DNA from: Candidatus Doudnabacteria bacterium
Lineage (GTDB): Bacteria > Patescibacteriota > Doudnabacteria > UBA920
Length of the DNA: 64,000 bases
NCBI GenBank assembly: GCA_963837465.1
Contig: CAWINB010000001.1
Location: 75,915 to 139,914, forward strand
Direction: 5' to 3'
Shown piece by piece: positions 3,109-64,000 of this stretch. A program made the translations under genes and the position numbers. Under the pieces are notes generated by a model, which saw nothing but the letters and a program-made list of their open reading frames with translations, was not told where the DNA came from and ran no database searches. The stretch's first letter is position 1. Each line of letters begins with the position of its first letter.

Positions 3109-3143
3109 AGCTTAGTGTCAAGGGTCACCCTTGACACTAAGCT
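3109..3143. terminator. palindromic hairpin (16-bp stem, 3-nt loop) between convergent dus and CYTH genes; repeated element
   Basis: AGCTTAGTGTCAAGGG-TCA-CCCTTGACACTAAGCT. The 25-bp core AGTGTCAAGGGTCACCCTTGACACT recurs identically at 22359-22383. Confidence 0.6.
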
Positions 3144-11975: not shown

Positions 11976-12017
11976 TTCCGTTTGCGCTAGCGTACTAGTA
12001 CGCTAGCGCAAACGGAA
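11976..12017. terminator. 42-bp perfect palindrome after the DMT gene
   Basis: TTCCGTTTGCGCTAGCGTACTAGTACGCTAGCGCAAACGGAA followed by a T-rich tract. Confidence 0.5.
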
Positions 12018-14063: not shown

Positions 14064-15014
14064 CTAAAAATCCGTTTGACTTTTAAAATCCTTAAGTCTT
14101 TGCTTAATATCTATGACTCTGATTTTTTGTAGTCGTCTGGTGCCAAGTCTTTCACAACAAAAACTGGCCAGTGCAGAGCCGTAAGCGCAGGCTTTTTTTA
14201 GGTTCTTCCACGAAGTATTATTTGTCTTTGCCAAATACCCCATAAACCCTCCCGCGAAGCTGTCGCCGGCGCCGGTGGGGTCGATGACTTTTTCCAGGGG
14301 GTAGCCGGGGAGATGAAAAATTTGGGATTTTTGGAACATCATCAGGCCGTATTCGCCGCGTTTGATGATGAGTGTAGGGGCTGGCTTTAGCCGCCCGTCA
14401 TCATTGGAAAGCGGGCGGGCAAGCCCGGCCCCTACAGTTCGCATAATCTTTTTGGCGGCTTTAATTAAATTATGTTCTCCCGATAGCTGTCGTGCTTCGG
14501 AATCGTTGATAATAAAAACATTTACCAGTTTTAAAACTTTGGCCAGCTGTTTGGGCGCGCTTGATATCCAAAAATTCATTGTATCCAGCCCCACAAATTT
14601 TGGTTTATTTATCTGGCTTAAAACTTCCAGCTGCAAAGAGGGGTGGATGTTGCCCGAAAAAATGTAGCCGGCTTTGGTGTGGCGGGGGAGTAGTCGGGGT
14701 TTAAAATTTTCAAAAACATTTAAGCGGGTAAATAAAGTTTCGCGGCTGTTTAAATCAAAACTGTACTCGCCGCCCCAGGCAAAGGTTTTGCCGCTTTCGG
14801 TTTGCAGGCCCGAAATATCCGCGGCGCCTCCAAGAATTTTTTTATCGGCCGCCGCAAAATCATTCCCCACTACCGCTACAAGCATCGGCTTTATAAAAAA
14901 CCTTGCGGCCAAAGAAAAATAAGTGGCGCTGCCGCCCAGCGCTCTCTTAACTTTGCCAAAAGGGGTTTTAATGCTGTCGTAGGCTACGGACCCGACGATT
15001 AAAAGGTTATTCAT
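14064..15014 (-). CDS. PfkB-family carbohydrate kinase (ribokinase-like)
   Basis: N-terminal GSVAYD and C-terminal DPTGAGDSFAGGF PfkB signature. Contains the in-frame palindromic insert at 14374-14435. Confidence 0.8.
   Translation of the reverse strand: MNNLLIVGSVAYDSIKTPFGKVKRALGGSATYFSLAARFFIKPMLVAVVGNDFAAADKKILGGAADISGLQTESGKTFAWGGEYSFDLNSRETLFTRLNVFENFKPRLLPRHTKAGYIFSGNIHPSLQLEVLSQINKPKFVGLDTMNFWISSAPKQLAKVLKLVNVFIINDSEARQLSGEHNLIKAAKKIMRTVGAGLARPLSNDDGRLKPAPTLIIKRGEYGLMMFQKSQIFHLPGYPLEKVIDPTGAGDSFAGGFMGYLAKTNNTSWKNLKKACAYGSALASFCCERLGTRRLQKIRVIDIKQRLKDFKSQTDF
14374..14435. repeat. GC-rich palindromic element (RPE-like) inserted in-frame in the PfkB kinase gene
   Basis: 24-bp arms GTAGGGGCTGGCTTTAGCCGCCCG / CGGGCGGGCAAGCCCGGCCCCTAC around a 14-bp centre. 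Same left arm and similar right arm at 38180-38263. Confidence 0.7.
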
Positions 15015-26070: not shown

Positions 26071-26130
26071 CCACCATTAACCATTAACCATTAACAATTT
26101 ACGATTAACAATTTACGATTTACGATTGAC
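26071..26130. repeat. compound short tandem repeats (CCATTAA x3; CAATTTACGATT x2-3)
   Basis: Seen in sequence between the DsbA-like and IMPase genes. Overlaps the putative TTG start of the IMPase gene. Confidence 0.6.
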
Positions 26131-27494: not shown

Positions 27495-28613
27495 ATGGCA
27501 AAAAGCAGGAAAAAAGTATTGATTGCTCTTTCCGGCGGAATCGATTCCGCGGTTTCGGCGTATTTGCTGCTTAAACAAGGCTATGAAGTGGAGGCCGCGT
27601 TTATGAAGAACTGGTCCAAGACGGCAGGTTTGCTTAAGAGCGATTGTCCCTGGCTGGTTGACCGGCAGGATGCTTTGCGCGTAGCGGCTTTTTTGCGCGT
27701 CCCTTTGCGTACGCTGGATTTTGAAAAGCAGTACCAAAAAAACGTTATGAGATATTTTTTTGACGAATACAAAAAAGGCCGGACGCCGAATCCGGATGTT
27801 ATGTGTAATAAGGAAATTAAGTTCAAACTTTTGTATAATTGGGCAATTAAGAACGGGTTTGATTATTTGGCGACCGGGCATTACGCCAGAATCGGAGGAT
27901 TGGAAAATCGGGGCCGTAGCGGGCCGATTTATAGGCGGCTTGGATATAATGGGCGCGCCACATTGGAGCGCGGCGCTGACGAATTCAAGGACCAAACCTA
28001 TTTTATTTACAACATAAAGCCCCGGCAGCTGCCGCATATTTTGTTTCCTGTCGGCGGCATGAAAAAATCCGCGGTGCGAGCTTTGGCGCGCAAACTTAAA
28101 CTGCCCAACGCGGAAAAAAAAGAAAGCATGGGTTTGTGCTTTGTGGGAAAAATCAGGCTAAAAGATTTTTTGGAGCAAAAGCTAAAGGAAAAGCCCGGGG
28201 ATATTCTTGACCTGAACCGCAAAACCATCGGCCGCCACCGGGGCCTGCATAACTACACCATCGGCCAGCGCCAGGGTATTAACATAGGCGGTTCGGCGCC
28301 ATATTATGTAACGAAAAAAGACCTGAAAACCAACAGGTTGTATGTGACCAATAACCCGGAGGATAAAAATTTGCTTACTAAAGAAATTCAAATCCACTCG
28401 GTAAATCAGCTGATCAGCTGGCCAGCTGATCAGCTGACCGGCCTGCGAGGACGCTATCGCCACCAGGGAGATTTAGTCCCGCTGACCATAAAAAAATTAG
28501 ACAAAATACATTATCAGGCAACCTTTAAAATCCCACAAAAAGCTATAGCCAGCGGACAGAGCCTGGTGCTTTATGAAGGCAAAACCTGTATAGGTGGCGG
28601 AGTAATAGCTTAA
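27495..28613 (+). CDS. mnmA: tRNA-specific 2-thiouridylase MnmA
   Basis: SGGIDSAV PP-loop and conserved catalytic Cys region. Carries a 32-bp palindromic in-frame insert at 28406-28437. Confidence 0.9.
   Translation: MAKSRKKVLIALSGGIDSAVSAYLLLKQGYEVEAAFMKNWSKTAGLLKSDCPWLVDRQDALRVAAFLRVPLRTLDFEKQYQKNVMRYFFDEYKKGRTPNPDVMCNKEIKFKLLYNWAIKNGFDYLATGHYARIGGLENRGRSGPIYRRLGYNGRATLERGADEFKDQTYFIYNIKPRQLPHILFPVGGMKKSAVRALARKLKLPNAEKKESMGLCFVGKIRLKDFLEQKLKEKPGDILDLNRKTIGRHRGLHNYTIGQRQGINIGGSAPYYVTKKDLKTNRLYVTNNPEDKNLLTKEIQIHSVNQLISWPADQLTGLRGRYRHQGDLVPLTIKKLDKIHYQATFKIPQKAIASGQSLVLYEGKTCIGGGVIA
28406..28437. repeat. 32-bp perfect palindrome inserted in-frame in mnmA
   Basis: TCAGCTGATCAGCTGG|CCAGCTGATCAGCTGA encodes QLISWPADQLT. 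The same peptide appears in the antisense ORF 28182-28463. Confidence 0.7.
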
Positions 28614-31157: not shown

Positions 31158-31205
31158 AGATAAGGAAATAAGGAAATACAGGACTCCAATCCGTGCGAGG
31201 ATTTT

Positions 31206-31233
31206 AAAGGGCGCCCCTTAAGGGGCGCCCTTT
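31206..31233. terminator. 28-bp perfect palindrome (bidirectional terminator)
   Basis: AAAGGGCGCCCCTT|AAGGGGCGCCCTTT. Confidence 0.5.
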
Positions 31234-31309
31234 AGTTCAAAAAATAGTTTGCAGGCGGAATTGCGGTAATTTCCGGTAGATTGACCCAAATAAATTTTTA
31301 AGGCAGGTT

Positions 31310-37642: not shown

Positions 37643-40600
37643 ATGGAAAAACTGCTGGACAATCTCAATAAAGAACAGCTTTCCGCGGTTACCCATAGGG
37701 ACGGGCCGCTTTTGATAGTGGCGGGAGCCGGGACGGGAAAGACCACGGTTATTACCCGGCGGATAGCTTATTTAATAGAACAGGGATTGGCCAAGCCCGA
37801 TGAAATTTTGGCGCTAACGTTTACGGACAAAGCCGCCGGGGAAATGCAGGACAGGCTGGCGCAGTTGTTGCCTCTGGGCTATTACGATATGTGGATTTCC
37901 ACGTTCCACAGCTTTTGCCAGCGAATTTTGGAACAGCACGGGCTGGATATCGGCCTGCCCGGGGACTTTAAACTGCTCAATAAGGCGGGCGCCTGGATAT
38001 TAATTTACAATAATTTGCAGAAATTTAATTTAAATTACTACAAACCGCTGGGCAACCCCAATAAATTTATTTCCGCTTTGCTTAAGCATTTTAGCCGGTG
38101 CAAAGACGAGCTGATAACTCCGGAGGCCTATTTGGAGTACGCGCGGGAACTGAAGCTGTCTACAGATGTAGCCGAAGGTGTAGGGGCTGGCTTTAGCCGC
38201 CCGCCTCCTGATGACGGGCCGCGCGGATCTTCTTTACGGGGCGGGCAGGCAAGCCCAGCCCCCGCGGATCCCAATATGGATCCAGCCGAAACACTTCGAA
38301 TAGAAGAAATTGCCAACGCTTTCCATATTTACGAAAAACTCCTGCTGGACGGCAACTTTTTGGACTTTGCCAACCTGATTAATTACACAATAAAACTTTT
38401 TGAAAAACGCCCGCAAATTTTAAAACACTACCGGGAAAAGTTTAAATATATTATGGTGGATGAGTTTCAGGATACCAATTTGGCGCAGTACGAGCTGATT
38501 AAAATGGTTGCCGGCGGCGGATTACGCAGCGTTCCCGCTTACGGGGCGTCCCCGGATGCCGATAAATCCGCGCGCCACACCCCATCTGCCAACCTCGTAG
38601 TCGTGGGCGACGACGACCAATCCATTTACAAATTCCGCGGCGCGTCCGTTTCCAATATTTTAAAATTCCAGGAGGACTACAGCCCACTCAAACAAACCAG
38701 TTTGGTGGAAAATTACAGAAGCGGCCAGGAAATTTTGGATTTGGCTTATGACTTTATCCAGTCCAACAATCCCGAGAGGCTGGAAGTTAAGTTAAAAATC
38801 AATAAAAGACTTAAAAGCCAAACGAAGGAAAAATCTGTTATTGAGGTTTTGGAAGGCAAGGATTTGGTTGAGGAACTTAATTTTGTCGCCAAAAAAATTA
38901 CGGAACTGAAATTGCAAAGCCAAAAAAGCACCTGGAACGATTTTGCCGTTTTAATAAGAAGCAATTCCGCGGCCCGCGAACTGTTGCCGGTCCTGGAAAA
39001 GCACGGCATCCCGCACACGTTTGTGGCCAATACAGGACTCTACAACAAGCCTTTTATTTCATTGCTGATTGCTTATTTGGAATGTCTGGACAATTTTCAC
39101 GACTCTTTTGCCTTGTATCGCGTGCTTTCGTTTGGCGAATTTAATATGCCGCCGGAGGACTTGGCGCAGGTTCTGGCCAATTCCGAAAGAAAAACCTTGT
39201 CTTTATACGAAATGCTCGGCAAAGCCGAAACTTTGCCGCAAATAGGGGGGAAGTCGCAAAAAATAATTCAAAATATTATTTTGCTTTTAAACCGGCACGC
39301 CGCGGTGGCCAGAGAAAAAGCGGCTAATGAAGTCTTTATCCAGATTATCCGTGATTTAAAACTCGACCAATGGCTGGAGGAGGATAATTCGCAAAACGCG
39401 GAAAACCGCGAGCTTTTGGAGCAGTTTTATAAAAAAATTGAAACTTTTGTGGCGGAGAATGTCGATAAAAGCCTGCATAATTTTTCGCATCTGCTCAATT
39501 TGGAAATAGAAGCCGGTGACGAAGGGCAGATTAAATTTGACCCGAACTTAGGCCCCCAAAGCCTTAAAATCCTTACCGTGCATTCGGCCAAGGGCTTGGA
39601 ATTTGAATATGTTTTTATACCCAACATGGTTGACCAGCGCTTTCCCACGCGGGCGCGCGGCGAACAAATAGAAATTCCGGCGCCGCTTATAAAAGATATC
39701 CTGCCGGAAGGGGATTTCCATCTCCAGGAGGAGAGGCGGCTGTTTTACGTGGCCGTAACCCGGGCAAAATCCCATTTATACTTGTCCTGGAGCAAGGATT
39801 ACGGCGGCGCCAAAACCAAAAAGCCTTCGCTGTTTTTGCAGGAGACCAAACTGGTGCCCGGGGAACATACTTCCCGGGCCACGGGAAAAGTATTTTTTCG
39901 GGGCAGCTCGAAAAATCAGGTGGTTTACAAATTTTTACCCGCGACTTTTTCTTTTTCCGCTCTCAAAGCTTTTGAAAACTGCCCGTTCCAATACAAATAC
40001 CAGTACTACCTAAAATTGCCCTGCCCCGGCAGCGCTTATTTCAGCTTTGGCCAGACAATGCATAAAACCTTTGAGTTGTATTTGAAAGATTACGCGGCCA
40101 GAAAAAGCCAGAGCCAGCGGGATTTATTCGCCAAGACATCCGCCCAAGCCGAGCCGGGCGATTTTAAATTTTTGGAAAAACTTTACCAGGACAGCTGGGT
40201 GGATGAGTGGTATAAAGATAAAAAGCAAAAAGAAGATTACCGCGAAAGAGGCCGCCGGCTTTTAAAGATTTTTTACGAAATTTCGCGAAAAAACCCGCCG
40301 AGCCCCAAATACCTGGAAAAGTCTTTTTACCTGCCTCTGGGGAAATATAAATTTACCGGCAAAATAGACAGAGCGGATTTTGTAAACGGCGCCCTGGAAA
40401 TCATTGATTACAAAACCAGCGAAAAAATACCGAAGCAAAATGACAAGGACGGACTGGACCAGTTGTATGTTTATCAGTGGGCGGCCCAGGAATTTTTGGG
40501 GGAAAAAGTTTCTGCCCTAAAGTACTGGTATTTGAACGAGGATAAGTTTCTGCCGGAAAAAATCGCGTCGGACCCGGAAATCCGGGAATTAAAGCAAAGG

Positions 40601-40735
40601 CTTTTAAAAAGCATTGAAAATATCGCGGAAACCATCAAATACGACCGTTTCGCCCAAGCGCACGAAAATACCAGGGAACACCAATGCCAATTTGAACATT
40701 GGGAAATCCATGGTTTGAATTTAAAAATAAACTAA
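37643..40735 (+). CDS. UvrD/PcrA-family SF1 helicase with C-terminal RecB-like PD-(D/E)xK nuclease domain (AddA-like)
   Basis: Walker A GAGTGKTT, DEFQDT, VVGDDDQSIY and the helicase C-domain. C-terminal CPFQYKYQYY and IIDYKTS nuclease motifs. In-frame GC-rich palindromic insert at 38180-38263. Confidence 0.85.
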   Translation: MEKLLDNLNKEQLSAVTHRDGPLLIVAGAGTGKTTVITRRIAYLIEQGLAKPDEILALTFTDKAAGEMQDRLAQLLPLGYYDMWISTFHSFCQRILEQHGLDIGLPGDFKLLNKAGAWILIYNNLQKFNLNYYKPLGNPNKFISALLKHFSRCKDELITPEAYLEYARELKLSTDVAEGVGAGFSRPPPDDGPRGSSLRGGQASPAPADPNMDPAETLRIEEIANAFHIYEKLLLDGNFLDFANLINYTIKLFEKRPQILKHYREKFKYIMVDEFQDTNLAQYELIKMVAGGGLRSVPAYGASPDADKSARHTPSANLVVVGDDDQSIYKFRGASVSNILKFQEDYSPLKQTSLVENYRSGQEILDLAYDFIQSNNPERLEVKLKINKRLKSQTKEKSVIEVLEGKDLVEELNFVAKKITELKLQSQKSTWNDFAVLIRSNSAARELLPVLEKHGIPHTFVANTGLYNKPFISLLIAYLECLDNFHDSFALYRVLSFGEFNMPPEDLAQVLANSERKTLSLYEMLGKAETLPQIGGKSQKIIQNIILLLNRHAAVAREKAANEVFIQIIRDLKLDQWLEEDNSQNAENRELLEQFYKKIETFVAENVDKSLHNFSHLLNLEIEAGDEGQIKFDPNLGPQSLKILTVHSAKGLEFEYVFIPNMVDQRFPTRARGEQIEIPAPLIKDILPEGDFHLQEERRLFYVAVTRAKSHLYLSWSKDYGGAKTKKPSLFLQETKLVPGEHTSRATGKVFFRGSSKNQVVYKFLPATFSFSALKAFENCPFQYKYQYYLKLPCPGSAYFSFGQTMHKTFELYLKDYAARKSQSQRDLFAKTSAQAEPGDFKFLEKLYQDSWVDEWYKDKKQKEDYRERGRRLLKIFYEISRKNPPSPKYLEKSFYLPLGKYKFTGKIDRADFVNGALEIIDYKTSEKIPKQNDKDGLDQLYVYQWAAQEFLGEKVSALKYWYLNEDKFLPEKIASDPEIRELKQRLLKSIENIAETIKYDRFAQAHENTREHQCQFEHWEIHGLNLKIN
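38180..38263. repeat. GC-rich palindromic element (RPE-like) inserted in-frame in the helicase gene
   Basis: Left arm GTAGGGGCTGGCTTTAGCCGCCCG is identical to 14374-14397. Right arm is GGCGGGCAGGCAAGCCCAGCCCCC. Encodes VGAGFSRP...ASPAPA between helicase motifs. Confidence 0.7.
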
Positions 40736-43708: not shown

Positions 43709-46141
43709 ATGAAATTTTCCCTGAACCTTTTAAAACAGTTTGTAAAAATTGATATGGAGCCGGAAAAACTCGGACAGCTTTTAACCGAGAAGGCTTTTGA
43801 AGTGGAAGAAGTAACCGCGGTTGGCGGCGGGGATTTTGGAAATATTACGGCTGCGAAAGTTTTGGAAGTTGCCAAGCACCCCAACGCCGACAGGCTCAGG
43901 GTTATTAAACTTGATGTCGGCGGGGGGAAGATTGTTTATCCGGTCGTCTGCGGAGCTTTTAATTTTGGCCCTGGAGACATAGTGGCTCTGGCGCTGCCCG
44001 GCGCCAAAATCGCCCAAAATATCCACTCCAAAAGCCGCGAAAGTTTTATTCTGCGAAAAGCCACTATAAGGGGCGTGGAAAGCCAGGGAATGATTTGCGC
44101 CGCTTTTGAACTTGGTTTGGAAAATCAGCCGGGGGAGGGAATTATGCTGCTGAAAAAATCCGTAGCGGCCGGCGCGGCCCTTGCCGAAGCCCTTGATACC
44201 GGCAGCCGGGACCGCGTGCTGAACATCTCTCTGCCGGCCAACAGGAGCGATTTATATTCCCATTTGGGAGTGGGGAGGGAAGTGGCGGCGGTGACCGGGG
44301 CAAAGTTAAAAGTTGAAAATAAAAAGTTGAAGCTTCCCAAAACGTCCGAAAATTTTAAAATTATTGTCAGGAGCAAACAACTCTGCCCAAGGTATTATGG
44401 CGTAAGGATGTCGGTAAAAATTGGGCCGAGCCCCGGGTTTATCCAGGACGTTCTTTCGGCTGTGGGCATGAGGCCGATTAACAATGTCGTGGATGTAACC
44501 AATTACGTAATGATGGAATTGGGCAACCCCACCCACGCCTTTGACGCTAAATTCGTTAAGGGGGATATTGTGGTCAAGACCGCCGCTGAGAGTGAAAAAT
44601 TTTTGGCTTTAAACCATAAAGAATATAAGCTAAGCTCTGATGATTTGGTCATTGCCGACAGCGAGAAAACTTTGGGCCTGGCCGGAATTATCGGCGGCAA
44701 GGAAAGCGAAATCAGCGAAACTACGGCTGAAATAATTTTGGAAGTGGCCAATTTCCAGGCACAGGGGATTAGAAAAACTTCCAAGAGGCTTGACATAAAC
44801 ACGGAAGGCGGCAGAATGTGGGAAAAAGGAATTCATCCCAGACTTGCCGAGCTTGCGCTTGCCCGCTGTCTTGAGCTGCTGCAAAAATATGCCGGCGCTG
44901 ATGTTTTGGAATTCGCCAAGTTTGAATCGCCGGTAAAACCCGCGGCCGCGATAAAATTCAGCGCCTCCGACATCAACAACCTCCTTGGGACGGGATTTAG
45001 CGCCAAAGAAATTCAAAAATATTTGCTGCGTTACGGAATTATCTCCAAAATTGTAAATTCTAAATCCGGAGTTTTAAACAGCGCTCCTCCCTGGTGGCGG
45101 ACCGATGTCGGCACGGTTCCCGATTTGGCCGAAGAAGTCCTGAAGCTTTACGGGTACAACAAGGTCAGGCCGGCGGCTTTGGCAATAACAGGATCATCAA
45201 TCAAGCCGGCAAATCCGGAAGACGGAGTTTACGAAACAAAAAACTTTTTCGCGCTGCTTGGTTACGCCGAGGTCCAGAATTATAATTTTGTTTCCCAAAA
45301 GGATATTGCCGCTTTTGGCGCCGGCATTAAAGATCATGTGGAAATCCGGAACCCGCTTTCCGAAGACCAGCGCTATTTAAAAAAATACCCGCTGATTTCG
45401 ATCTTAAAAAATATTGAGCTTAACCAAAAGCATTTTAGCGGCTTTAAAATTTTTGAAGCGGGAAAACAATATTTTGATTTTGGGAAAGAACCCCGAGTTT
45501 TACTGGCTGCCAGCTTTAGTAAGCTGGAGGCCGCTGAAAAACTTTTAATGAAAATCAAGGGCGACGTTTTGGAATATCTTAAGTCTTTGGGCATTAACGA
45601 TGTCCAATTCAAAACGGACGAAAACCCCGCCCGGCTGAGTTTAATAACAGGGGGTGTTTATGCCGGTGGAATTGGTTACGCCAGCGAAGAGCTGAAAAAA
45701 AACTTTGGGGTAGAGGGTCAGGTTGTTTTTGCGGAACTGGAGCTGGAACAAATTCTGCCTTTAAAAAAGGCCGTGGTTTATGAACCAATCAGTAAGTTGC
45801 CAAGTGTTGAGAGGGATATTTCCATGGTAGTCGACGAAAAAGTTAAATGGTCAGACATCGGAGTTGCGGTCAGCCCATTTATGGGCTCATTAAAAGCGAA
45901 AACTGATGATAAGTCCGGCGGTTATAACCTTGAGTTATCCCTTTTTGAGGCCCCATTTTTGGCCCACGACAAAGAGACGTTAAAATTCCATCAGGAACTG
46001 GCTAAACAGGGCAAAAAGAATTTAGGCATAAGGCTTTTATTTAAGCCAATAAACCGCACCATGACAGACCAGGAAATTGCTGGAATTTTAGACCAAATTG
46101 TGCTAAAATTACAGCAGGAAATAAAGGCAGAAATTCGCTAA
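43709..46141 (+). CDS. pheT: phenylalanyl-tRNA synthetase beta subunit
   Basis: N-terminal tRNA-binding domain (KHPNADRLRV), B3/4 and B5 domains. 810 aa. Confidence 0.9.
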   Translation: MKFSLNLLKQFVKIDMEPEKLGQLLTEKAFEVEEVTAVGGGDFGNITAAKVLEVAKHPNADRLRVIKLDVGGGKIVYPVVCGAFNFGPGDIVALALPGAKIAQNIHSKSRESFILRKATIRGVESQGMICAAFELGLENQPGEGIMLLKKSVAAGAALAEALDTGSRDRVLNISLPANRSDLYSHLGVGREVAAVTGAKLKVENKKLKLPKTSENFKIIVRSKQLCPRYYGVRMSVKIGPSPGFIQDVLSAVGMRPINNVVDVTNYVMMELGNPTHAFDAKFVKGDIVVKTAAESEKFLALNHKEYKLSSDDLVIADSEKTLGLAGIIGGKESEISETTAEIILEVANFQAQGIRKTSKRLDINTEGGRMWEKGIHPRLAELALARCLELLQKYAGADVLEFAKFESPVKPAAAIKFSASDINNLLGTGFSAKEIQKYLLRYGIISKIVNSKSGVLNSAPPWWRTDVGTVPDLAEEVLKLYGYNKVRPAALAITGSSIKPANPEDGVYETKNFFALLGYAEVQNYNFVSQKDIAAFGAGIKDHVEIRNPLSEDQRYLKKYPLISILKNIELNQKHFSGFKIFEAGKQYFDFGKEPRVLLAASFSKLEAAEKLLMKIKGDVLEYLKSLGINDVQFKTDENPARLSLITGGVYAGGIGYASEELKKNFGVEGQVVFAELELEQILPLKKAVVYEPISKLPSVERDISMVVDEKVKWSDIGVAVSPFMGSLKAKTDDKSGGYNLELSLFEAPFLAHDKETLKFHQELAKQGKKNLGIRLLFKPINRTMTDQEIAGILDQIVLKLQQEIKAEIR

Positions 46142-63516: not shown

Positions 63517-64000
63517 ATGCATTACTCCTATTTTTTTATTCTGGCCGTGCTGCTGGCGCTGATTCTTACCCCTGTTATTAAAAAACTGGCGGCGCGTTTT
63601 AAAATTTTGGATATCCCGGACCAAAAGCGCAAGCTGCACACCGCGGCAATGCCCTTGCTCGGAGGAGTGTCTTTGTATTTAAGTTTTTTACTGGCTTTAC
63701 TGGCTTACCTGAACTCCGGGGAAGTAAATTTTAATGTCGTTCCTTTAAAATTTTTTTCGGGAATTATATCCGGCGGCCTGATTTTAATCATCGGCGGCAT
63801 CCTGGACGATAAATTCAGCCTGCCGCCCAAAATCTTATGGCTGTTCCCGGCCCTTGCCTCGGCAATCGTGGTTGCCTCAGGTATTGGCGTGGGTATTACC
63901 CATCTCAGCAACCCCTTTGGCCATTCAATTTACATTGGCTATACCTTAAAGCTGTCAGCTGTCAGCTTTAAGCTGTCAGCTGTCCTGGCTTGGCTCTGGA
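63517..64000 (+). CDS. polyprenyl-phosphate N-acetylhexosamine-1-phosphate transferase (WecA/TagO-like, GT4 family), 5' partial
   Basis: ILDIPDQKRKLHTAAMPLLGGVSLY matches DxPxxRKxH....P..GG of the WecA/MraY superfamily (WecA-type). Runs off the window end. Contains the AGCTGTC tandem repeat at 63945-63990. Confidence 0.65.
   Translation, partial: MHYSYFFILAVLLALILTPVIKKLAARFKILDIPDQKRKLHTAAMPLLGGVSLYLSFLLALLAYLNSGEVNFNVVPLKFFSGIISGGLILIIGGILDDKFSLPPKILWLFPALASAIVVASGIGVGITHLSNPFGHSIYIGYTLKLSAVSFKLSAVLAWLW

Follow-up and report, generated by a model that had tools for sequence, protein, structure and literature searches.

A 32-bp palindrome in a Doudnabacteria mnmA gene and its relation to an orthologous non-triplet repeat tract

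The short tandemly repeated repetitive (STRR) sequences of heterocystous cyanobacteria, heptanucleotide arrays reportedly described by Mazel et al. in 1990, are mainly intergenic and are built from few fixed unit sequences. Rickettsia palindromic elements (RPEs) are true insertions of 100–150 bp that occur in many dispersed copies, and in the repeats found in open reading frames (ORFs) of Borgs the unit length is a multiple of 3 nt and the copy number is variable. The use of STRRs is mentioned in PMC5088731, while repetitive extragenic palindromic sequences (REPs) and REPINs are extragenic, carry a conserved GTAG or CGTC end tag and reach a high copy number (PMC3733652). Quasipalindrome template switching, in turn, is an established mutational mechanism in Escherichia coli (PMC7202029; PMC7954356). 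The present analysis concerns a perfect 32-bp palindrome inside mnmA, the gene for tRNA 2-thiouridine(34) synthase, in a stretch of 64,000 nt (hereafter the window) from a Candidatus Doudnabacteria bacterium (assembly GCA_963837465.1, contig CAWINB010000001.1, positions 75,915 to 139,914). Good support was found for rejecting an insertion, a mobile element and an artefact as readings of this palindrome, and also for assigning the array that forms it to an orthologous non-triplet repeat tract that is site-specific, preserves the frame and lies in a permissive protein loop. The palindrome is probably the present lineage state of such a tract, of old origin, homogenised by slippage or template switching.

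The palindrome and its counterparts in orthologous genes

The mnmA gene (27495..28613, + strand) is intact and encodes 372 aa; its identity was assigned from Pfam, from the match to E. coli MnmA and from orthologues. All three Pfam domains (tRNA_Me_trans HUP, PRC-barrel and C-terminal barrel) were present, and E. coli MnmA (PDB 2DER) was matched with E = 4e-81. The exact protein was not found in the public protein collection searched, the best match being 75% identical, and the best 120 listed orthologues, from Patescibacteria or Doudnabacteria-like sources, were 61–75% identical. Scans of genome and metagenome collections each yielded ~12 close relatives among the matches listed.

The palindrome, TCAGCTGATCAGCTGGCCAGCTGATCAGCTGA, was confirmed at 28406..28437 (no strand assigned) and holds four copies of CAGCTG, two of TGATCA and one of TGGCCA, the sub-palindromes from which the initial annotation had it built. 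The longest palindromes in 50 Markov shuffles of the window measured 14–26 bp, and the window itself holds three palindromes of at least 30 bp, the other two being intergenic. The 14-mer CAGCTGATCAGCTG, for which 0.06 copies were expected by chance, is present in two exact copies with one 2-mismatch copy between them, and the 52-nt stretch at the palindrome, taken as single-stranded DNA, folded with −17.7 kcal/mol (z = −5.5). The palindrome extends from the last base of Asn304 through the codons Q305–L314 to the first base of T315, and thus encodes the peptide QLISWPADQL that had been read from it, with the centre of symmetry at the W309/P310 codon boundary. Because the palindrome is centred on a codon boundary, the antisense strand encodes the same peptide, as had also been pointed out for ORF 28182..28463 (− strand); this is a matter of arithmetic and no evidence for a gene, and the ORF, which overlaps the well-supported mnmA, is spurious.

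The underlying repeat was reported by Tandem Repeats Finder (TRF) with a period of 8 and 4.1 copies. Together with the register alignment to the arrays of the orthologous loci L081, L083 and L169–L171, this defined an octamer tandem array at 28408..28439 (+ strand) with the four units AGCTGATC AGCTGGCC AGCTGATC AGCTGACC, directly followed by a degenerate fifth unit, GGCCTGCG (28440..28447, + strand). The four units consist of AGCT joined to GATC, GGCC, GATC and GACC, respectively. As AGCT, GATC and GGCC are each self-complementary, the run AGCT-GATC-AGCT-GGCC-AGCT-GATC-AGCT is its own reverse complement, and the array is therefore a nested perfect palindrome.

The array lies in a variable site, here called site b (codons 305–318, QLISWPADQLTGLR; 28407..28448, + strand), which forms a loop linking two strands of the C-terminal β-barrel and, among 116 orthologues, is hypervariable both in its sequence and in its length. 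An AlphaFold2 model of the window protein, built on 68 sequences, placed strands at residues 303–305 and 317–321 and the loop at 306–316, with a predicted local distance difference test (pLDDT) score of 68–78. Alignment of the 120 best orthologues showed MnmA to vary most in the segment bounded by the conserved motifs HSVN and GR(Y/F)RHQ. The loop measures 14 aa in the window, compared with 13 aa in the shortest orthologues (WISEPKKFPAKLT), a mode of 16 aa and a maximum of ~48 aa, and across site b E. coli MnmA showed one 1-residue gap and Bacillus subtilis MnmA none. The 11-aa insertion that the initial annotation had proposed at this place was therefore not borne out: the window carries no extra segment relative to its orthologues of the kind that an in-frame mobile palindromic element would leave. 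The shortest orthologues (PKKFPAKL) were without any repeat at site b.

The DNA of ~35 mnmA orthologues was compared at site b, and six of these, all from different assemblies, carried octamer arrays in the register of the window. In L081 and L082, a metagenome-assembled genome (MAG) from NCBI and a Logan assembly, the array reads AGCTGATC AGCCGGCC AGCTGATC AGCCGGCC AGCTTGCT, and in L169 it reads AGCTTATA AGCTTATC AGCTTATC AGCATATC AGCTTGCT; the octamer arrays of L170, L171 and L083 resembled those of L169, L081 or the window. Independent assemblies whose MnmA genes are 70–74% identical thus share arrays of the form (A/G)GCTNNNN that agree in both codon position and register. In eight more orthologues, with 16-aa loops, the site holds four heptamers with a shared offset, and every genome has a unit of its own (e.g., TTTCAAT four times in L005, ATCCAAT three times plus ATCCGAT in L086, and GCAGAAT/TGAGAAT/GCAGAAT/GCAGAAT in L165), while the 3′ ends of the units (AAT, AAC or AGC) were common across genomes. 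At the protein level, a 7-aa period was present in 36 of the 116 orthologue loops and an 8-aa period in nine, the pattern to be expected if a 7- or 8-nt unit is read in all three frames. Since relatives carry arrays at the same site and in the same register, the window sequence is best described as one allele of an orthologous repeat tract. Conservation of the segment among MnmA orthologues, which the initial annotation had named as a result that would speak against its reading, was accordingly found in a modified form, for the array and its register and not for the sequence. Units of one genome resembled each other more closely than they did their counterparts in other genomes (in the window both 16-mers carry AGCT, in L081 both carry AGCC), which points to concerted evolution.

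One of the orthologous records calls for a comment of its own. The MnmA of L081 (GCA_031291095.1, JARLJR010000064.1) bears the source label 'Legionella sp.', and its gene order (histidyl-tRNA synthetase, NUDIX, CAP, YbaB, S11 peptidase, DsbA, inositol monophosphatase, MnmA and pyrophosphatase) matches that of Doudnabacteria-like loci. Because gene order and sequence both agree with these loci, the record is probably mislabelled or mis-binned.

Motif searches covered the window and 173 fetched loci. Outside this mnmA site the pattern (AGCT N4)x3 was found neither in the window nor in the 173 loci, and this restriction leaves no dispersed sequence family, so that the family of repeat insertions suggested in the initial annotation was not upheld. 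Similarly, GCTGATCAGC occurred among the 173 loci solely in L081/L082, at the orthologous mnmA site, and the 14-mer and the palindrome are confined to one locus in 64 kb, as opposed to the dispersed copies of an RPE or of an element like a miniature inverted-repeat transposable element (MITE). In comparison with REPs and REPINs, the palindrome is intragenic, single-copy and free of a GTAG or CGTC tag. That a small mobile element of palindromic sequence (RPE, MITE or REP-like) was inserted in frame, as it had first been read, is thus highly improbable and has been largely refuted. Such a reading could draw on the hairpin elements that the lineage has inside ORFs (e.g., window 14373–14436 and 38183–38262), on insertions of 110–114 nt at another mnmA site (L172 and L084) and on a 21-aa indel in site b in cluster 2, all of which are described below, but the mnmA palindrome involves no net insertion, has no further copy in 64 kb and none outside the orthologous site in the 173 loci, and the corresponding place in orthologues is occupied by homologous arrays. 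In addition, the exact 30-mer of the palindrome was not found in viral_contigs.

The synthetic look of the motif had also raised the suspicion of adapter or linker sequence. This was dispelled by the orthologous arrays at the same codons in the independent assemblies L081/L082, L083, L169, L170 and L171, and an adapter or contaminant was rejected on these grounds and on the result for the 30-mer. An assembly, adapter or linker artefact was considered extremely improbable: the motif is made of restriction-site-like palindromes and the best protein match is only 75% identical, but the reading frame is intact and related genomes carry homologous arrays in assemblies from NCBI, JGI, ENA and Logan. 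A restriction-modification role for the motif was likewise unsupported. The observed/expected ratios of CAGCTG, TGATCA and TGGCCA were 0.81, 1.33 and 0.99, and as these six-base palindromes are not avoided elsewhere in the window, they give no pointer to such a system; GATC was moderately low, at 0.58. Over the whole window, GATC, TCGA and CTAG were under-represented (observed/expected 0.52–0.58), CTCGAG and GACGTC had 0 copies, and GGGCCC had one against five expected.

Proposed homogenisation of the tract and competing origins

The proposed history of the tract may be set out as follows. The site would be the β-hairpin loop at the start of the C-terminal barrel of MnmA, and the loop DNA of the clade would consist of ~4 units, either of 8 nt, (A/G)GCTNNNN, or of 7 nt, NNNN-AAT/AAC/AGC, with position and register both fixed. 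Local templated copying would homogenise these units with the length unchanged, through transient slipped misalignment in the case of direct units and through fold-back (quasipalindrome) template switching in the case of self-complementary ones. Fold-back template switching would at the same time account for symmetric changes such as TATA to TATC to GATC. Selection would keep only in-frame tracts of 13–17 codons, and whole alleles would now and then be exchanged between lineages by homologous recombination. The tract would have no function of its own, with the hairpin as a by-product.

The folding of the arrays bears on this last point. The 12-bp palindrome AGCTTATAAGCT was found in L083 and L169–L171, and 5 of the 16 distinct N4 tetramers in the octamer arrays were self-complementary, compared with 1 in 16 expected (P = 0.002). 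All six octamer-class segments folded better than shuffles, with z values from −3.0 to −5.2. When the pairing register of the window was applied to six orthologues, 84.5% of the cells were paired, against 13–39% in slid controls, and four pairs had changed on both sides. These values could reflect selection for the hairpin, i.e., an mRNA or DNA stem-loop ahead of the C-terminal domain that serves as a translational pause, RNase, protein-binding or recombination site. Nevertheless, most heptamer-class segments had z values of ~0, with a minimum free energy of 0 for L005, and the shortest orthologues are free of repeats. Moreover, much of the pairing is automatic from the AGCT every 8 nt, and 31 of 500 shuffles reached the observed pairing. 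No T-run follows 3′ of the stem, and Rfam gave no match at the palindrome, its only matches in the window being two tRNAs. A selected hairpin was for these reasons regarded as quite unlikely, while the self-complementary bias as such is compatible with fold-back template switching and equally with weak selection for a hairpin.

The tempo of change was assessed in clusters of closely related MnmA sequences. In clusters at least 96% identical, site-b arrays were identical or single substitutions apart, and among those at least 94% identical, 9 of 10 showed such arrays; the tenth differed by a 21-aa in-frame indel with the same unit number. P0006 contigs recurred across samples (2 and 6). Given the stability of the arrays within clusters and the recurrence of these contigs, rapid phase variation is unlikely. 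A phase-variable contingency locus, in which gain or loss of an 8-nt unit would switch MnmA, and thus the s2U34 modification of tRNA, off and on, was considered very unlikely in its turn. The classic architecture, a non-triplet repeat inside an ORF, is present (period 8, 4.1 copies), and several metagenomic homologues of a WecA-like gene of the window end at or near an array, but the mnmA tract has only four, imperfect units, neither copy-number variation nor frameshifted alleles were seen among close strains in the 10 clusters, members of clusters with at least 96% identity shared identical arrays, as did different samples, and no frameshifted mnmA was found among the loci examined. As for the WecA-like truncations, these may be contig ends, the contigs being very short (650–1182 nt in the two cases with a recorded contig).

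At the DNA level, the pairs L084/L173 and L172/L167 had flanks ~90% identical, with sites a and b replaced and their length almost unchanged (site a is a second variable site of mnmA, described below). Between L172 and L167, the divergent tract takes in the GRYR codons, with differences at 8 of 12 bases, and beyond it ~40 bases are identical. The L172 version of this tract matches L006, which gives a hint of whole-allele exchange by homologous recombination. A neighbour-joining tree of MnmA with the loops masked was star-like, so that loop types were resolved neither as clades nor as exchanged.

The mnmA tract has to be seen against a wider pattern in the lineage. Arrays of period 7 or 8 with at least three copies were counted in 350 kb of Doudnabacteria-like DNA, comprising the window and the loci L001–L012, L081–L093 and L165–L173. 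Period-7 arrays numbered 52 (149 per Mb) and period-8 arrays 7 (20 per Mb), compared with 6 and 3.5 per Mb, respectively, in 1.14 Mb from cultured Firmicutes and Gammaproteobacteria and with 58 period-7 arrays per Mb in other metagenomic loci; second-order Markov simulation of a 376-kb locus set gave ~1 period-7 array per replicate. The 7-nt arrays are thus over-represented in the lineage, as is typical of an STRR-like class, but the units are diverse, open frames of at least 120 codons contain 60 of the 85 arrays with a period of 7 or 8, and the mnmA unit has 8 nt, in place of few fixed units at mainly intergenic positions. The modal array length was 31 nt in coding and non-coding DNA alike, and typical period-7 arrays had ~3–6 copies. 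No description of short tandem arrays of this kind in Patescibacteria was found in the literature library searched.

This pattern is what gives substance to another origin, in which an active lineage-specific process, with a stuttering gap-filling repair polymerase or an RNA-templated polymerase as candidates, writes ~31-nt arrays of 7- or 8-nt units and the mnmA loop merely tolerates the product. Such a process is unlikely. It is favoured by the 24-fold excess of period-7 arrays over cultured bacteria and the 52 observed against ~1 per simulated replicate, by perfect arrays (100% matches) in L005, L086 and L003, by wholesale replacement between near-identical genes with length almost constant, and by the recurrence of the AACRATT family (AACAATT/AACGATT/TTTACGA) at unrelated loci in different genomes (window 26073–26127; L004 8261–8292 and 19101–19132; L172 1632–1662, which is site b), where no shared flanks were evident. 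On the other hand, no candidate enzyme or template was identified, and the shared register and unit ends (3′ AAT/AAC/AGC or 5′ AGCT) are easier to reconcile with descent from a single ancestral array than with arrays written anew time after time. Part of the 31-nt mode may be due to the TRF detection threshold, and the units were highly diverse, with pairs of similar units only modestly enriched (108 observed vs. 81.5 ± 8); single linkage at no more than one mismatch chained nearly all units together. In its strongest form, which is about as improbable, an undescribed dedicated process in Doudnabacteria-like Patescibacteria would overwrite ~31-nt stretches, genic and intergenic, with 4–5 copies of a 7- or 8-nt unit. 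If this were true, the mnmA palindrome would be one product of it and the apparent allele swaps would be fresh events.

Homogenisation of an old tract in a permissive loop, although the preferred explanation, has several observations against it. Length-neutral homogenisation is assumed and was not observed, and stepwise slippage is hard to reconcile with a gene that looks essential, since each 7- or 8-nt unit gained or lost is a frameshift. Some pairs 95–96% identical outside the loops have unrelated arrays (P0047, WINQLISQSANKPISLQ, vs. P0098, WINKEKQLTINNTRLT; P0088 vs. P0113), while one loop type recurs in proteins only ~79% identical. Because near-identical pairs differ and such distant proteins agree in loop type, recombination has to be invoked, for which the evidence in the DNA is thin, consisting of the one divergent tract that includes the GRYR codons. 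The folding of all six octamer-class arrays (z = −3 to −5.2) means that selection for the hairpin may play a part. The occurrence of the 31-nt mode also in non-coding DNA and the recurrence of AACRATT hint at a specific generating process beyond simple slippage; simple slippage does not fully account for the strong preference for 7 nt, for the modal length of 31 nt or for the return of the same unit families, and a dedicated array-generating process could cover them. Finally, the window tract is known from the assembly alone.

Other arrays and hairpins in the window and in mnmA

Heptamer arrays occur at several further places in the window. In a WecA/MraY-like gene, the array AGCTGTC AGCTGTC AGCTTTA AGCTGTC AGCTGTC (63945..63990, + strand; TRF period 7, 5.0 copies) encodes KLSAVSFKLSAV. 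The orthologues P0125, P0126 and P0131 have segments of equal length with a 7-aa period at the same place, and because of this equal length the array constitutes no net insertion. The initial annotation had seen in it a repeat related to that of mnmA and likewise in frame; it does belong to the same general class and is in frame, but it is a heptamer array, (AGCTGTC)5, without net insertion. The homologues P0121–P0124, P0129 and P0130 of this gene, which lies at window 63517–64000, end at or just past the heptamer array; assemblies may break at the arrays, or strains that were assembled together may differ in them. An intergenic array of ACCATTA/ATTTACG with ~8 units (26073..26127, no strand assigned) lies between the DsbA-like and inositol-monophosphatase genes, and AAAGTTA is repeated 3.9 times in pheT (44302..44328, + strand) between the tRNA-binding and B3_4 domains.

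Within mnmA, variable site a (aa 134–152; 27894..27950, + strand) is not present in E. coli MnmA and was modelled with a pLDDT below 50. In orthologues, this site carries heptamer arrays, some of them as inverted pairs. Heptamer arrays were frequently paired in this way, with the reverse-complement array at a distance of 15–60 nt (e.g., L171 2661–2765, L166 9364–9477, L168 10399–10471 and L089 6382–6471); such pairs form long hairpins with tandem-repeat arms, both between genes and at site a. A third variable site, in the middle PRC-barrel domain, had in-frame insertions of 110–114 nt (L172 ~1310–1425 and L084 ~1276–1389), present in one gene of a closely related pair and missing from the other. 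The L172 insertion ends in 10-bp terminal inverted repeats, TCATTGCGAG...CTCGCAATGA, and that of L084 is a chain of GC-rich hairpins. The 21-aa in-frame indel inside site b, (S/Q)(V/A)(T/I)PARHLLEHQATxGGSYKL, distinguishes P0059 from P0143, P0145 and P0147 (96–99% identical) and is, as in L084, an element of the hairpin type embedded in the repeat tract.

Two long ORFs of the window each contain one copy of a GC-rich hairpin element, GTGTAGGGGCTGGCTTTAGCCGCCCG...CGGGCGGGCAAGCCC(G/A)GCCCC, one at 14373–14436 in a PfkB-family kinase ORF (14064–15014, − strand) and one at 38183–38262 in a UvrD/PD-(D/E)XK helicase-nuclease ORF (37643–40735, + strand). One end of the element resembles GTAG-tagged REPs (PMC3733652), and the element is probably the first family of in-frame insertions to which the initial annotation alluded. 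The other two long palindromes of the window, both intergenic, are one of 42 bp at 11976–12017 and one of 30 bp at 31205–31234 with the halves TAAAGGGCGCCCCTT and AAGGGGCGCCCTTTA. Additionally, a terminator-like 17+1+17 inverted repeat lies between convergent genes at 3109–3143.

Comparison with described systems

The analysis disposes of contamination and of a mobile insertion as accounts of the mnmA palindrome, and a perfect palindrome of synthetic appearance is seen to be obtainable from plain tandem repetition of a unit with self-complementary tetramers. More generally, a group of uncultivated bacteria with small genomes keeps non-triplet repeats of 7 or 8 nt in housekeeping genes, with all three frames translated, copy number fixed and units homogenised per genome, which is an unusual route to making and turning over the sequence of protein loops. 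Arrays of this type are a possible cause of contig breaks and of mis-annotated 'insertions' in MAGs, and they offer a way into the replication and repair of organisms not yet cultivable.

None of the systems compared here (STRRs, contingency loci, quasipalindrome switching, RPEs and Borg repeats) fits every defining feature of the tract, and each shares part of them. RPEs and in-frame MITEs (PMC1779305; PMC10969869) have in common with it that palindromic DNA is translated within a functional housekeeping protein at a permissive site, but the mnmA palindrome has 32 bp, occupies a single site and is orthologous, with no net insertion. The tandem repeats of Borgs (PMC9879509) evolve fast in ORFs and similarly create new peptide segments, whereas the units considered here have 7 or 8 nt and a fixed copy number. 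Simple-sequence contingency loci, e.g., those of Haemophilus influenzae (PMC2651432; PMC8262952), share the non-triplet tandem repeat within a coding sequence; they differ from the present case, in which few imperfect units show no copy-number polymorphism among close relatives and the gene is a housekeeping one for tRNA modification, with a loop tract in which all three unit frames are translated. Quasipalindrome template switching (PMC7202029), including its short-range form (PMC7954356), would provide for the length-neutral perfecting of inverted repeats and for symmetric double changes such as TATA to GATC; it is a mutational mechanism and no element, and its action here is suggested by the enrichment of self-complementary tetramers. 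With STRRs, finally, the locus and its lineage share the lineage-specific abundance of scattered, short tandem arrays of 7-nt units, and they are set apart from them by the location of 60 of the 85 arrays in ORFs, by diverse units, by a copy number of ~4 and by the self-complementary 8-nt unit of mnmA.

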